Part shown: piece by piece, positions 12,600 through 55,443 of the stretch
Numbering within the stretch: the first letter of the stretch is position 1
Layout of the letters: each line of letters opens with the position of its first letter
Assembly: GCA_012178725.1 (NCBI GenBank)
Contig: GCA_012178725.1_3030.1
Strand: one strand, 5' to 3'
Source of the DNA: a phage
Length of the DNA stretch: 64,000 nt
Translations under genes and position numbers: made by a program
Notes under the pieces: model-generated
Database searches by the model: none
The model's input: only the letters and a program-made list of their open reading frames with translations
What the model was told of the DNA's origin: nothing

Positions 12600-13235
12600 T
12601 CACAGTTCAGATGCTACAGTGATTACAGCTTCAATGTTTTCTGCCGAGCGTTTAATGTCAAGATACACATTACCGTTTTTAGCGATTTTACATGACATTC
12701 CGATGTCAGTAAATTTCTGAATATGATGTTCCATCATTTTGTATCCAAAAATTCGCATATTTCCATTATTGTTAATTTCAAAATTACGAATTCCGTGAGT
12801 ACGTTTTTCTAAAATAGCGAGATAGTTACTGCGATAAGTTTCAACCTTTTTAAGAACAAATCCATTTTCATCTAAAAGTTTTAACATGAGGTCTTTATCT
12901 TCTTCCATATCAGAAGTAATTTCACGAGCTTTACGAGTTGCTCGTTTTTTCAGTAGTTCCGGAGCATTTTCCTGTGCATATAAAGTTGCTGCGTTTGAAA
13001 TAATATCCTGAGCTTCACCTGTAATGATTAATCCATCACCAGATTTCTCCACCAGGCCTTTTTTAATCAATACCCCAATATTACTATTAACTACTGCGTT
13101 ACCTAAATCTGGATGTACCTCACGAACTTCTACAGCTGTAATGAAATCTTTCTTAGCAATGGTAATTAAAATCGCAGCAGTTTTTTCATTCAGAACATCG
13201 TTAGAAGCTTTGATGATATAAGTTACTTTAGACAT
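12600..13235 (-). CDS. motA: Middle-promoter transcription activator MotA
   Basis: 211-aa ORF; length and sequence as T4 MotA. Confidence 0.93.
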   Translation of the reverse strand: MSKVTYIIKASNDVLNEKTAAILITIAKKDFITAVEVREVHPDLGNAVVNSNIGVLIKKGLVEKSGDGLIITGEAQDIISNAATLYAQENAPELLKKRATRKAREITSDMEEDKDLMLKLLDENGFVLKKVETYRSNYLAILEKRTHGIRNFEINNNGNMRIFGYKMMEHHIQKFTDIGMSCKIAKNGNVYLDIKRSAENIEAVITVASEL

Positions 13236-13276
13236 TTTCTAATCTCCGTAATTCTGTATCAGTAGTTGATAGTTGT

Positions 13277-13306
13277 ATAGTACCACAGTATGCTTTGGTT
13301 GTAAAC
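13277..13306 (-). promoter_or_regulatory. Early promoter (GTTTAC-N18-TACTAT) upstream of motA
   Basis: Reverse strand reads GTTTACaaccaaagcatactgtggTACTAT with an A/T-rich upstream tract. Confidence 0.6.
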
Positions 13307-13321
13307 CGTTTTGTGAAAAAA

Positions 13322-13357
13322 TTTTTAAAATAAAAAAGGGAGAGCCTCGGCTCTCCC
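13322..13357 (-). terminator. Intrinsic terminator after gene 52/motA.1
   Basis: gggagagc/gctctccc stem, then TTTTTTATTTT on the - strand. Confidence 0.65.
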
Positions 13358-15963: not shown

Positions 15964-16074
15964 TCAAGGAGTATAAAATCCGAATGCAGTTGTTGACCAT
16001 CCCATCCAGTATGGGAAATTTGCACCAATGTAAAACATAAGAATATAAAACCAACCGCTCAGCAAATTCATCAT
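15964..16074 (-). CDS. Hydrophobic micropeptide (36 aa)
   Basis: Hand-called MMNLLSGWFYILMFYIGANFPYWMGW...; ATGA overlap with upstream stop. Confidence 0.35.
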   Translation of the reverse strand: MMNLLSGWFYILMFYIGANFPYWMGWSTTAFGFYTP

Positions 16075-16268
16075 TTTACACCGTTCCAAATTGTTTCAAC
16101 CACGGATTTTAAGCCATTTTGATGAATGTCCATTCCAACTACCGCCATCAAATAGATTCCAACTACAACTGAACCTAAGGCAAAAATCAGCATGAAAATG
16201 AATAAAGCCGGAAAAATATTATCGAAAAACCATTCAATAAATGTAAAAGCACTGCGTTTACGCTTCAT
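16071..16268 (-). CDS. Small membrane protein (65 aa)
   Basis: ORF-track frame trimmed to MKRKRSAFTF start, which has a GAGGA ribosome-binding site; one predicted membrane helix. Confidence 0.5.
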   Translation of the reverse strand: MKRKRSAFTFIEWFFDNIFPALFIFMLIFALGSVVVGIYLMAVVGMDIHQNGLKSVVETIWNGVK

Positions 16269-16275
16269 ATTTTCC

Positions 16276-16389
16276 TCACATAAATCCAAAGTAAACGTTT
16301 AATACATCAATCATTAAAACGATTGGGAATATACTCAAAACAACTAAAATTATAATTATATTCCATATAGCTTTAATAATCTTTTTCAT
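16276..16389 (-). CDS. Hydrophobic micropeptide (37 aa)
   Basis: MKKIIKAIWNIIIILVVLSIFPIV...; GGAGGA 7 nt upstream; the track's 82-aa version begins at a TTG inside the promoter. Confidence 0.45.
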   Translation of the reverse strand: MKKIIKAIWNIIIILVVLSIFPIVLMIDVLNVYFGFM

Positions 16390-16417
16390 TTTGTGTTCCT
16401 CCGTGGTTGATAGGGTA

Positions 16418-16447
16418 ATAATACCACAGAGGAACAGTCTTGTAAAC
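16418..16447 (-). promoter_or_regulatory. Early promoter (GTTTAC-N18-TATTAT)
   Basis: Canonical T4 early promoter architecture directly upstream of the 37-aa ORF. Confidence 0.6.
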
Positions 16448-16696
16448 AACTTTTTTAAAAATATTCGTAATAAATGTGAATACCAATCACTACTGCCGAA
16501 ACTTGCGCAACCCACCACGCACAAGCAATAAGTACAGAATTAAAAATTTTCATAATAACCTCATCACAAAAGTAAATGTTAAACAAATTACTGGAATACT
16601 AATTAACCAAACAAAACACCACCACAATGAACTCATAGTTCAATCTCAGCGATTTTCATTTTATTCTCCAAATCTGTATCAGTATTTGATAGTTGT

Positions 16697-16726
16697 ATAG
16701 TACCACGGTCCTTGTGGTATGTAAAC
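16697..16726 (-). promoter_or_regulatory. Early promoter (GTTTAC-N18-TACTAT) downstream of denB
   Basis: Same architecture and conserved leader CAACTATCAAATACTGATACAGA. Confidence 0.6.
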
Positions 16727-16741
16727 CATTTTGTGAAATTT

Positions 16742-17299
16742 TTAAATGGAAAGATACCATCCATTGTAGTTGCTTTTTCTTACAACCTTACGAAGGTCTT
16801 CTCTATCACCGATGAACTTCGGAGTGTACTGGATGACACCTGGATGAATTTCTTTAGTGTTGAATATAATTATACAGTCCGCGACCTGGTGATTTAGAAT
16901 GGGCCCTAGATTTATTCCAGAACCATATGGATACTCTCCGCTGCATCCTGTTGTTACAGAAATCCAACGTGAGTCAGTTTGATGTGTCTTAACTTCTACA
17001 CGGAGCCCGCAATATTTTGGATGTGCTAAAACATCCCATGCATATGTGTACGGATCATTGACATCTTCTTGGCCTTTATTGACATATCCGCTTAGCCAAT
17101 CTGCTACAAAAAACTCTGCGTACACAGCGATACGGCATCTTTCGATAACTTCTGTCTTATCCTGATTTGGGTTTTGTTTTAAAGAGTATCTTGCAGTATC
17201 AGCAATTTTGACCTTCATTTCACCAGTCAAGTCACTGTTCGATAGGGTAAATGTCGGAATCTGAAATAGTCTCTGTAGCCCCGGATTCGTTTTCTGCAT
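16742..17299 (-). CDS. denB: Endonuclease IV DenB
   Basis: 185-aa ORF in the denB position next to rIIB; size as T4 DenB. Confidence 0.85.
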   Translation of the reverse strand: MQKTNPGLQRLFQIPTFTLSNSDLTGEMKVKIADTARYSLKQNPNQDKTEVIERCRIAVYAEFFVADWLSGYVNKGQEDVNDPYTYAWDVLAHPKYCGLRVEVKTHQTDSRWISVTTGCSGEYPYGSGINLGPILNHQVADCIIIFNTKEIHPGVIQYTPKFIGDREDLRKVVRKSNYNGWYLSI

Positions 17300-26370: not shown

Positions 26371-27054
26371 TTATCGTTTAGTTGGAAGAGATAGAGGATC
26401 GCATTCTTCCTCTGATGGAGCGTCTTCTAGACCCATAGCGTATCGCAAAGCATACTTCATCATCAGGATGTCTTTCGCACAGTCATGAATAGAATCATGT
26501 GCAACGAATCCATCTAAAGTTCCCTTTGGAAGAGGACATGTGGTCATATCACGAACAAGCAGAAGTGCTTCAATTCTGGTACGAATATCACGCTGATTCC
26601 AGAATTTACACGGTTCTAACTTAAATGTGTCAAGCTCATTCTCAGAAACACCATTAAGACGTTGAATATCACGAATGAGATCGACTAAAATTGGAAAATC
26701 AAACGACATTCCACGGCACCAGCCTTGAGATTTCCAAGGATCGATATTATGCGCATTGATGTAATCATTAAATTTTGCAATACCATCGATAGTGCTTACA
26801 TCTTCATCTGATGGTGCAATATTTTTTCTAGCTTCAGGTGATTGATTTTTCCACCATTCGATAGTGCTTTTAGTAAAAAGACGATGTCCTTTTTGGCTTT
26901 TTAAATCAAATTTGATTTTAATGCCGCGTGAAACTAATTCATCAAATGTTTCAACAACTTCCGGGTTAGGGTCAAAAGCAATTACAGCCAAATCAATAAC
27001 AGCTGCTTTTTCACCACTTCCCATCGTTTCAAAATCTATAATAAAATCAAACAT
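26371..27054 (-). CDS. dexA: Exonuclease A DexA
   Basis: 227-aa ORF with DEDD-type exonuclease N-terminus; length as T4 DexA. Confidence 0.9.
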   Translation of the reverse strand: MFDFIIDFETMGSGEKAAVIDLAVIAFDPNPEVVETFDELVSRGIKIKFDLKSQKGHRLFTKSTIEWWKNQSPEARKNIAPSDEDVSTIDGIAKFNDYINAHNIDPWKSQGWCRGMSFDFPILVDLIRDIQRLNGVSENELDTFKLEPCKFWNQRDIRTRIEALLLVRDMTTCPLPKGTLDGFVAHDSIHDCAKDILMMKYALRYAMGLEDAPSEEECDPLSLPTKR

Positions 27055-27311
27055 TAAATTTTCCTTGCTAAATCGCGAATTTGACCTACAGTATAGTCTT
27101 GAATATAAACTTTATTGATAGGCTCATCAATAAATTTTGCCATAGATTCAATGTCTTTTTGTATTTCTTCAAGACTGTATACTATCTTTAAAGCTTTTTC
27201 GCGAATAGTAATATTTTCAGGACCCTGATTTTCTTTAATGACAGCTTTAACATTTGCCATAAGAGATTTAAATTGGTACCAACTTAATTCAATCATTAAT
27301 AATCGCCTCAT
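27054..27311 (-). CDS. Hypothetical protein (85 aa), dexA.1 position
   Basis: ORF overlapping the dexA start. Confidence 0.6.
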   Translation of the reverse strand: MRRLLMIELSWYQFKSLMANVKAVIKENQGPENITIREKALKIVYSLEEIQKDIESMAKFIDEPINKVYIQDYTVGQIRDLARKI

Positions 27312-43272: not shown

Positions 43273-43524
43273 TTAAAACTTAACAAATAACTTTAAAGCA
43301 TCTTCAGTTTTAATTCCTTTTCTTACACCCATAACAGAAATTGGCTGTGACTGAAATTTTCCTTTACCATTATAAATTTCTAATCCAGTCACCATTCCAT
43401 TTTGTTCTATAATACCGTAAGTGTTACCTTCATTTTCAAATTCTTTAACTTTAAAAAGTTTATTCGCTTTTTCTGCGTTAACAACTTTTAAATTTTGAAT
43501 AAAATTAGTTTGAATATTTTTCAT
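43273..43524 (-). CDS. Hypothetical protein (83 aa)
   Basis: First gene after a duplicated promoter-leader cassette. Confidence 0.55.
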   Translation of the reverse strand: MKNIQTNFIQNLKVVNAEKANKLFKVKEFENEGNTYGIIEQNGMVTGLEIYNGKGKFQSQPISVMGVRKGIKTEDALKLFVKF

Positions 43525-43582
43525 TTTGTGTTCCTCCGTAGTTGATAGTTGTATAGTACCACAGAGGAACGGTCTTGTAAAC
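43524..43582 (-). repeat. Promoter-leader cassette copy 2
   Basis: About 55 bp nearly identical to 16389-16447, including -35, -10, ribosome-binding site and ATG. Confidence 0.75.
43552..43581 (-). promoter_or_regulatory. Early promoter (GTTTAC-N18-TACTAT)
   Basis: Reverse strand reads GTTTACaagaccgttcctctgtggTACTAT. Confidence 0.6.
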
Positions 43583-43654
43583 AGTTTTGTGAAAAAATTT
43601 TTAATGAATCCAAAAGGTCCAGAATCATCTGTTTTTCATAAGTATAGATTTATA

Positions 43655-43686
43655 TTACTTGTATGAAAAAGGGACCCGGAGGTCCC
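43655..43686 (-). terminator. Intrinsic terminator after gene 43
   Basis: gggacc-UCCG-ggtccc then TTTTTCATAC on the - strand. Confidence 0.65.
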
Positions 43687-43699
43687 CAGATTTATTCTA

Positions 43700-55270: not shown

Positions 55271-55443
55271 CCACATAATACGCCATACAGAGGCTCGTTA
55301 GAACTTTTAAATTTTATGCGCTTATATTTTATAGTTCCTTCTGCTTTAGCTTTATCATGAGACTCTTTAAAGCGTCTCATCATTTCCTCTTTAGAGGAAC
55401 GAATTTTATTATAATCTATTTCAGAAGTCTGGGTGTTCATCTT

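Follow-up and report, generated by a model that had tools for sequence, protein, structure and literature searches.

The window analysed here is a stretch of 64,000 nucleotides (nt) of phage DNA (NCBI GenBank assembly GCA_012178725.1, contig GCA_012178725.1_3030.1) whose source is a Tequatrovirus, a T4/T2-like phage, and the element in question is a short early-gene cassette, running from promoter to start codon, that occurs in it as two near-identical copies. Copy A lies near 16.4 kb, in a region that matches rIIB-denB-ndd-ac of hundreds of T-even genomes at 95-99.9%, and precedes the small gene ndd.4. Copy B lies near 43.5 kb, in a region that matches the stretch from gene 43 (DNA polymerase) over imm.1 and imm to 42, and precedes orf83, an open reading frame (ORF) of 83 amino acids (aa). 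The minus strand is the direction of the genes around both places, and the features of the two loci are given below in that direction.

16448-16470, minus strand: region upstream of the copy A -35 box, read from the sequence and only partly similar to its counterpart in copy B
16442-16447, minus strand: GTTTAC of copy A (-35 hexamer TTTACA at 16441-16446), from the consensus scan; a minus_35_signal on the T4 orthologue in X75802
16423-16435, minus strand: 5' arm of the copy A hairpin, GTTCCTCTGTGGT, within the promoter spacer, from RNA folding
16418-16423, minus strand: -10 box of copy A, TATTAT, with TGn before it, in the hairpin loop, from folding and the consensus scan
16395-16407, minus strand: 3' arm of the copy A hairpin, ACCACGGAGGAAC, with the Shine-Dalgarno sequence GGAGG at 16398-16402, from RNA folding
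16276-16389, minus strand: ndd.4, a predicted inner-membrane peptide of 37 aa behind copy A, from the ORF list and the PP01 and T4 annotations (phrog_3098)
43670-43687, minus strand: intrinsic-terminator-like hairpin with T-run that immediately follows gene 43 and lies ~90 nt upstream of copy B, from the terminator scan
43577-43582, minus strand: GTTTAC of copy B (-35 hexamer TTTACA at 43576-43581), from the consensus scan
43558-43570, minus strand: 5' arm of the copy B hairpin, GTTCCTCTGTGGT, from RNA folding
43553-43558, minus strand: -10 box of copy B, TACTAT, in the hairpin loop, from folding and the consensus scan
43530-43542, minus strand: 3' arm of the copy B hairpin, ACTACGGAGGAAC, with the Shine-Dalgarno sequence GGAGG at 43533-43537, from RNA folding
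43273-43524, minus strand: orf83, an accessory ORF of 83 aa behind copy B and followed by imm.1, equal to RB51ncORF048c of RB51 (phrog_18567)

To place the likeness on a quantitative footing, we aligned the two copies from promoter to ATG on the minus strand: copy A (16389-16447) and copy B (43524-43582) are identical at 52 of 59 positions (88.1%), and a longer ungapped block (16382-16448 with 43517-43583) at 60 of 67 (89.6%). A sequence-only reading of this DNA had proposed a near-identical cassette of about 55 bp at two loci 27 kb apart, with 80% identity on careful alignment as the lower limit; the 88.1-89.6% found here, at exactly the positions proposed, bears this out. Each 26-nt half of the cassette, with up to three mismatches permitted, occurs exactly twice in the window and not once in 100 dinucleotide-preserving shuffles. 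Both copies show the same order of elements: an A/T-rich upstream region, GTTTAC, a 17-bp spacer, TGn, the -10 box, a leader of ~25 nt, GGAGG, ACACAAA and ATG. The -35 and -10 boxes, leader and ATG of the earlier proposal are thus present in both, and consensus scans score the promoter 10/12 in copy A and 9/12 in copy B, each with a 17-bp spacer and TG ahead of the -10 box. Directly 5' of the -35 box stands AATATTTTTAAAAAAGTT in copy A and AAAAATTTTTTCACAAAACT in copy B. The seven mismatches between the copies either fall outside both hairpin arms or turn a C-G pair into U-G, and four of them form one block directly 3' of the -10 box (TACCC versus ACAAC). The genes behind the cassettes, the 37-aa membrane peptide and the 83-aa protein, both exist as described and, as was also proposed, are unrelated to each other (phrog_3098 versus phrog_18567).

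Judged from its sequence, copy A supplies ndd.4 with its early promoter, leader and start, and the transcript is predicted to begin near 16411. In GenBank record X75802, -35 and -10 signals are annotated for the T4 orthologue of copy A and for another promoter that lies 280 bp upstream of it; early promoter activity of the two cassettes is thus a prediction supported by the annotation of T4 orthologues. A scan of the whole T4 genome revealed a third full copy, before nrdC.8, that is identical to copy B of the window at 64 of 64 positions. The T4 ndd.4 copy is present as well, with four substitutions in the stem described next.

One element of the cassette was absent from the earlier reading: a promoter-spanning hairpin over the Shine-Dalgarno sequence. 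The 5' arm in the spacer, GTTCCTCTGTGGT, is complementary to the 3' arm in the leader, ACYACGGAGGAAC, giving a predicted RNA stem of 13 bp with an energy of -23.3 kcal/mol in copy A and -19.4 kcal/mol in copy B (z = -4.7; none of 200 shuffles folds as well). The hairpin is common to copies A and B and the nrdC.8 copy (13 bp, -19 to -23 kcal/mol in all three). The -10 box is in its loop, and the 3' arm of the stem includes the complete GGAGG (five bases). Cassettes of this type fold far better on the sense than on the antisense strand (-20.9 versus -11.4 and -19.4 versus -12.4 kcal/mol). RNA beginning at the predicted own start, ~7 nt after the -10 box, is without the 5' arm and is predicted to be unfolded.

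We then compared 15 distinct natural variants of the cassette. The stem is 97.9% paired over these variants, all five variable pairs change between C-G and U-G or between G-C and G-U, and pairing is broken only by an A.C mismatch that one haplotype of the orf83 locus carries. By itself, the family of copies A and B and nrdC.8 is consistent with a conserved stem, as modelled by folding, and is no proof of one.

These features suggest a simple scheme. Read-through RNA coming from upstream would form the 13-bp hairpin and bury GGAGG, while RNA from the cassette's own promoter would begin inside the loop, without the 5' arm, and its ribosome site would be free. As a result, ndd.4 and orf83 would be translated only from their own immediate-early promoters. 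At copy A, read-through is likely from the promoter annotated 280 bp upstream (promoter D, within copy D described below), and the terminator scan predicted no terminator between that promoter and copy A. A masking role of the hairpin at early promoters is, from the folding models, a plausible extension of known principles, with statistical support across T4 promoters.

Several points weigh against this scheme. No double compensatory changes occur among the 15 variants of the A/B/nrdC.8 family; about 14 of the 24 possible transitions would keep pairing in any case, so that five one-sided changes are weak evidence (estimate ~0.07). Most phages that carry orf83 have the A.C mismatch in the stem (-13.9 kcal/mol), indicating that the stem need not be perfect. 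A terminator lies ahead of copy B, so possibly little read-through reaches this copy, and the need for masking there is less obvious. The hairpin arms overlap elements that are constrained for other reasons (spacer, TGn, Shine-Dalgarno), and masking of the ribosome site is purely a thermodynamic folding prediction. Because the family lacks double compensatory changes, we do not claim covariation and rely instead on a permutation test across paralogous promoters.

For this test we collected 26 T4 early promoters with a regular expression (GTTTAC, a spacer of 16-19 nt, TAYWAT, a Shine-Dalgarno sequence and ATG) and compared the pairing of each spacer with its own post-(-10)/leader region and with the leaders of the others. 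The mean duplex energy is -11.2 kcal/mol for own partners and -7.3 kcal/mol for others (permutation p < 5e-5), and the own leader is the best-ranking partner of the spacer in 11 of the 26. At least five predicted pairs cross the start site in 14 promoters, and at least three Shine-Dalgarno bases are paired to bases before the start in nine. Long stems that bury the Shine-Dalgarno sequence, built from unrelated arms, occur at regB, denV, motB.2 (P8.1), nrdC.4, mobD.5 and e.8; shorter stems around the -10 box alone occur at motB, ipI, 30.7, cd.2 and frd.1. Promoter regions fold better than random windows (p < 5e-5). The mean fold over promoters is -12.6 kcal/mol for the sense strand and -9.4 kcal/mol for the antisense strand, the stems use G-U pairs, and the strand bias is larger at promoters than in random windows drawn from the same regions (-9.6 versus -8.0; p ~0.009). 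The excess of sense-strand folding, together with the G-U pairs, points to structure in the sense-strand RNA rather than a palindrome in the DNA.

Five T4 hairpin promoters with unrelated arms were inspected individually: 62797 (regB), 65413 (denV), 8218 (motB.2, P8.1), 50973 (nrdC.4) and 15288 (mrh.2). Their energies lie between -12 and -24 kcal/mol, and in four of the five folding is much better on the sense than on the antisense strand, the exception being denV (-18.0 versus -18.9). Shine-Dalgarno bases are paired at regB, denV, motB.2 and nrdC.4; at mrh.2 only one of four is.

Masking of the ribosome site at early promoters thus appears, from predicted folds, to be widespread in T4. A more general proposal can be phrased as promoter-autonomous translation: T-even early promoters would lie systematically inside sense-strand hairpins, small early ORFs would be translated only from their own transcript and be silent on read-through, and arms and core together would serve as portable homology that moves modules of promoter, leader and ORF between loci. 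We offer this tentatively, and hold it to be possible but doubtful. Under it, ndd.4, orf83 and nrdC.8 would be the clearest example, with regB, denV, motB.2 (P8.1) and nrdC.4 among the independent ones, whose arms are unrelated.

The second property of the cassettes, their exchange between loci, can be followed in natural haplotypes. We compared 31 cassettes from T4, PP01, the window, IMG/VR and metagenome contigs, and six fetched orf83 loci; the arm-specific and degenerate scans behind this set returned only 10 viral and 15 metagenome loci, so the sample of variants is small. An 18-mer leader scan of IMG/VR (GGAGGAACACAAAATGAA) was set aside: it returned 94 stretches, of which four overlap the cassette-specific scan, and it detects a generic Shine-Dalgarno sequence plus start. 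The usual state at ndd.4 is arm CTTCCG, loop TACCC and leader ACAG, and that at nrdC.8 is arm CCTCTG, loop ACAAC and leader ACAC. Across phages, the cassettes of ndd.4, nrdC.8 and orf83 are mosaics of one another, and all four combinations of loop and leader are present. The nrdC.8 cassette of locus L107 is identical to the ndd.4 cassette of L116, and the ndd.4 cassettes of L106 and L119 are identical to the nrdC.8 cassettes of L103 and L117. Copy A of the window is itself a mosaic, with arm and leader of the nrdC.8 type and a loop of the ndd.4 type. Within this set, the ndd.4 cassette of L106 (IMG/VR 2974742932) has a full loop of the nrdC.8 type and a leader shorter by 1 nt (ACAGAAATG versus ACAGAAAATG), which means that the spacing from Shine-Dalgarno sequence to ATG varies within the family.

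At the orf83 locus two haplotypes of the 5' arm are found. In RB51, RB27, UFV13, ECO07P2, ECO78 and ZCEC14 the arm is that of the T4 imm.1 promoter, GTTCTTCCATGG, and gives a mismatched stem (-12.4 kcal/mol in RB51, -13.9 kcal/mol in the other five), while in T2 and the window it is the arm of ndd.4 and nrdC.8, with a perfect stem of about -20 kcal/mol. T4 is without orf83, and its gene 43 is followed directly by imm.1; the promoter between the two is a chimera of a 5' half like that of copy B and a leader of the type found in copy D. The divergence between the window and T4 starts exactly after CTATCAACTAC, and the two rejoin exactly at the imm.1 ATG. On this sequence evidence, the orf83 insertion, compared with T4, is bounded by a putative crossover inside the core that the copies share. 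Since orf83 was found in only 31 phage records (among them T2, RB27, RB51, UFV13 and PhiZZ30), it behaves as an accessory module, leader and ORF together, placed behind a resident promoter. The T2 record PV958097 annotates a coding sequence of 35 aa across the promoter cassette between gene 43 and orf83 (window 43521-43628, minus strand), which is probably an over-call of the annotation pipeline.

The proposal that the repeats are potential substrates for recombination is therefore supported by the mosaic haplotypes and by the orf83 breakpoint; large rearrangements provide no such support. Between copies A and B, which are direct repeats, lie essential genes (39, 60, 41, 61, uvsX, 42), and a reciprocal crossover between the two copies would delete or duplicate 27 kb with these genes. 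Because of the essential genes, and because 27 kb exceeds the terminal redundancy, reciprocal products would be inviable and only conversion-type events would be expected. Patchy haplotypes without rearrangement agree with this expectation, 27-kb deletions, duplications and inversions not having been searched for systematically. The 25-65 bp that the copies share would serve the T4 recombination system in ectopic gene conversion and in the transfer of modules of leader and ORF. The mosaics could partly reflect same-locus exchange between co-infecting phages, which counts against conversion between loci, but haplotypes shared across different loci argue against that origin in several cases.

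It is instructive to compare these cassettes with those already described in T4-type phages as PeSL (promoter-early stem-loop) cassettes (Arbiol, Comeau, Kutateladze, Adamia, Krisch 2010, PMC2839356; Comeau, Arbiol, Krisch 2014, PMC4122927). The PeSL papers describe mini-circles and an exchange of ndd.4/.5 between T4 and PST (PMC2839356, PMC4122927), and in the 2014 paper TTTACW-N17-TAYWAT is the promoter consensus for T4/PST, and an exchange at ndd.4/ndd.5 is illustrated (PMC4122927). All parts of a PeSL are present in copies A and B: the A/T-rich region, a sigma-70-type early promoter, the stem-loop, the Shine-Dalgarno sequence and ATG. Like PeSLs, the cassettes are repeated and concentrated among small, non-essential, variable ORFs (four related copies in the window), they stand at boundaries of ORF insertion or replacement (here the left breakpoint of orf83, at the end of CTATCAACTAC), and recombination falls between the -10 box and the Shine-Dalgarno sequence/ATG. 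The differences are that in the authors' account the T4/PST stem-loops lie immediately upstream of the promoter and are taken for terminators or attenuators (PMC4122927), and that copies A and B lie 27 kb apart instead of flanking a single ORF. The stem of copies A and B spans the -10 box and the start site, with the ribosome site as its 3' arm, a position that matches the PeSL subclass of RB49/phi1 (PMC2839356). Taken together, we think it probable that the two copies are paralogous T-even early-gene regulatory cassettes of the published PeSL class, each consisting of a strong sigma-70 early promoter, a leader, GGAGG and ATG.

A function of the stem-loop that the PeSL authors assign, termination or attenuation of upstream transcription that would insulate the downstream gene at the level of RNA synthesis, has some experimental backing: one PeSL stem-loop cut downstream lacZ as much as a strong terminator, and the stem-loops of RB49/phi1 lie mostly between the -35 box and the -10 box or over the latter (PMC2839356). 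The same drop in lacZ is also expected from translational masking or from RNA effects, and in nine of the 26 T4 early promoters the 3' arm coincides precisely with the Shine-Dalgarno sequence. The stems of copies A and B are followed by ACAAAAUGAAAAA, without a U-run, and the terminator scan found no terminator at either hairpin, though it detected the one after gene 43. An intrinsic terminator was rejected for want of a U-run, and we consider termination or attenuation in general, such as by a non-canonical attenuator, an unlikely account of these cassettes.

The likeness could instead stem from common ancestry and from promoter and ribosome-site consensus, with the inverted repeat incidental, the duplication old, no exchange going on and no function for the hairpin. 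All T4 early promoters share an extended consensus beyond the -35 and -10 boxes (PMC2988021), the family is without double compensatory changes, and most phages tolerate a mismatched stem at orf83. Consensus does not account for the non-consensus spacer and leader that copies A and B have in common and that the partial copies C and D are without, nor an old duplication for haplotypes shared across different loci in different genomes and present in all four combinations of loop and leader. At other T4 promoters, too, a spacer is complementary to the leader of its own promoter, through unrelated sequences (p < 5e-5), and sense-strand-specific G-U pairing is above background. We regard an incidental origin as quite improbable. 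An action of the inverted repeat as DNA is very improbable, be it an operator bound by a dimeric protein of phage or host or a cruciform that influences how the promoter opens, possibly in early-promoter shut-off. In its favour, the -10 box lies between the two arms of the repeat, and the literature describes the mechanism of shut-off as not understood (PMC3014915, PMC2988021). This reading was rejected on G-U content and the asymmetry of sense and antisense folds: G-U pairs of the stems would turn into G-T or A-C mismatches at the DNA level, and antisense strands fold much worse. In addition, the arms differ completely between promoters, so that no single sequence-specific binder fits.

Masking of the ribosome site in read-through RNA, as we propose for early promoters, has well-known counterparts in T4 itself. 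At e, soc, 49 and I-TevI (reviewed by Uzan and Miller 2010, PMC3014915), a long upstream RNA buries the Shine-Dalgarno sequence or AUG, and an internal promoter yields a shorter, translatable RNA without the 5' strand. In those genes the internal promoter is late or middle and delays expression, whereas in copies A and B it is early; masking has been proven by experiment for e and I-TevI and is predicted for copies A and B. Because their internal promoter is of the early type, the two cassettes are analogues in logic of this set rather than members of it, and cases of masking at early promoters are not in that review (PMC3014915). The cassettes also fit the T4 early promoter class, the 'uber' UP/-35/TGn/-10 promoters (Hinton 2010, PMC2988021), in GTTTAC, the 17-bp spacer, TGn, the -10 box, the A/T-rich upstream region and extra conserved positions; the definition of that class is silent on complementarity of spacer and leader and on near-identity over 60 nt between members.

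The finding is real but largely ordinary for T4-like phages. Recombination through repeated cassettes is already published as PeSL, including the ndd.4 locus (PMC2839356, PMC4122927), the ndd.4 promoter is an already annotated T4 feature, and the repeat as it was stated changes little. New, as a modest but well-documented addition to this class, is the three-locus subfamily of ndd.4, nrdC.8 and orf83; its haplotypes are a record of repeated ectopic conversion across tens of kilobases, and it could be a natural assay for short-homology recombination in T-even phages. The orf83 breakpoint is a clean case of an accessory ORF slotted, with its own leader, behind a resident promoter. Masking of the Shine-Dalgarno sequence at early promoters is the one moderately new angle, for which the statistics place many T4 early promoters within sense-strand hairpins, one third of these over the ribosome site. 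If the hairpins are functional, the principle of e, soc, 49 and I-TevI would extend to the immediate-early class, which would explain why each of many tiny early ORFs has a strong promoter of its own and would bear on the engineering of T4-like phages and on how phage transcriptomes and ribosome-profiling data are read.

A literature search for a T4 start-site map or for older notes on stem-loops before denV, ipII or regB returned nothing usable. Valerie et al. in 1986 reportedly noted potential stem-loops before ipIII, ipII, denV and orf61.9; if this is correct, the novelty is lower still.

The cassette belongs to a wider family, represented in the window by two partial copies and their surroundings.

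13262-13319, minus strand: partial copy C, the motA early promoter, with upstream region, -35, TGn/-10 and the CTATCAACTAC core, a different spacer and a different leader, from the sensitive search
16686-16738, minus strand: partial copy D, an early promoter directly after denB, with the same core and the second leader type CTGATACAGATTTGGAGAATAAAATG, from the sensitive search; its orthologue is annotated as a promoter in X75802
16633-16659, minus strand: mini-ORF of 8 codons (MKIAEIEL) behind copy D, with its first 12 nt, ATGAAAATCGCT, identical to those of T4 imm.1 and its stop codon overlapping the start of ndd.6 (ATGA)
13233-13325 and 16633-16745, minus strand: second-leader sites in the window, with T4 counterparts at 27036-27093, 55342-55397 and 70652-70709

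The description of the cassette as duplicated therefore holds for the two near-identical copies of the window and falls short for the family, which has more than two members, including the partial copies at motA and after denB. A four-way alignment of copies A, B, C and D shows TTTTTCACAAAAnnGTTTACA ... TGGTAcTATacaaCTATCAAcTAC in all of them; among the four, only A and B have the spacer GTTCCTCTGTGG and the leader ACGGAGGAACACAAAATGAAAAA, and C and D have another leader in common, CTGATACAGAwTT...GGAGA. In T4 the cassette core recurs at imm.1, nrdC.10, e.8, frd.3, motA and ndd.6, and more than eight sites are related (including ndd.4, ndd.6, motA, imm.1, nrdC.8, nrdC.10, e.8 and frd.3). Related genomes have two to five cassette-matching places each.

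The second leader type, CTGATACRGAwTT...GGAGAATAAAATG, stands on the same promoter core at motA, ndd.6, imm.1, nrdC.10 and e.8. The leaders differ in their relation to the RegB endoribonuclease, whose sites in the ribosome sites of early genes follow GG*AGRAYARAA and against which secondary structure is reported to protect (PMC3014915). As in RegB targets, GGAG lies within the early-gene Shine-Dalgarno sequence of the A/B leader, where it is predicted to be unpaired only in the own-promoter transcript. After GGAG, the A/B leader (GGAGGAACACA) matches the RegB consensus (PMC3014915) at four of seven positions, the second leader (GGAGAATAAAA) at seven of seven at ndd.6 (copy D), nrdC.10 and e.8, and the motA (GGAGATTAGAA) and T4 imm.1 (GGAGAATGAAA) leaders at six of seven each.

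From its sequence, the mini-ORF of 8 codons that follows copy D appears to be what remains of a copied imm.1-type promoter cassette, and it may be a translational-coupling leader for ndd.6. Directly after ndd.4 lies an ORF of 72 aa (window 16071-16289, minus strand) with a TTG start and an internal ATG beginning MKRKRSAFTF...; T4 has the short ORFs ndd.3 and ndd.2a at this position, and on sequence comparison the 72-aa ORF is a putative further small-ORF replacement within the same hyperplastic stretch.

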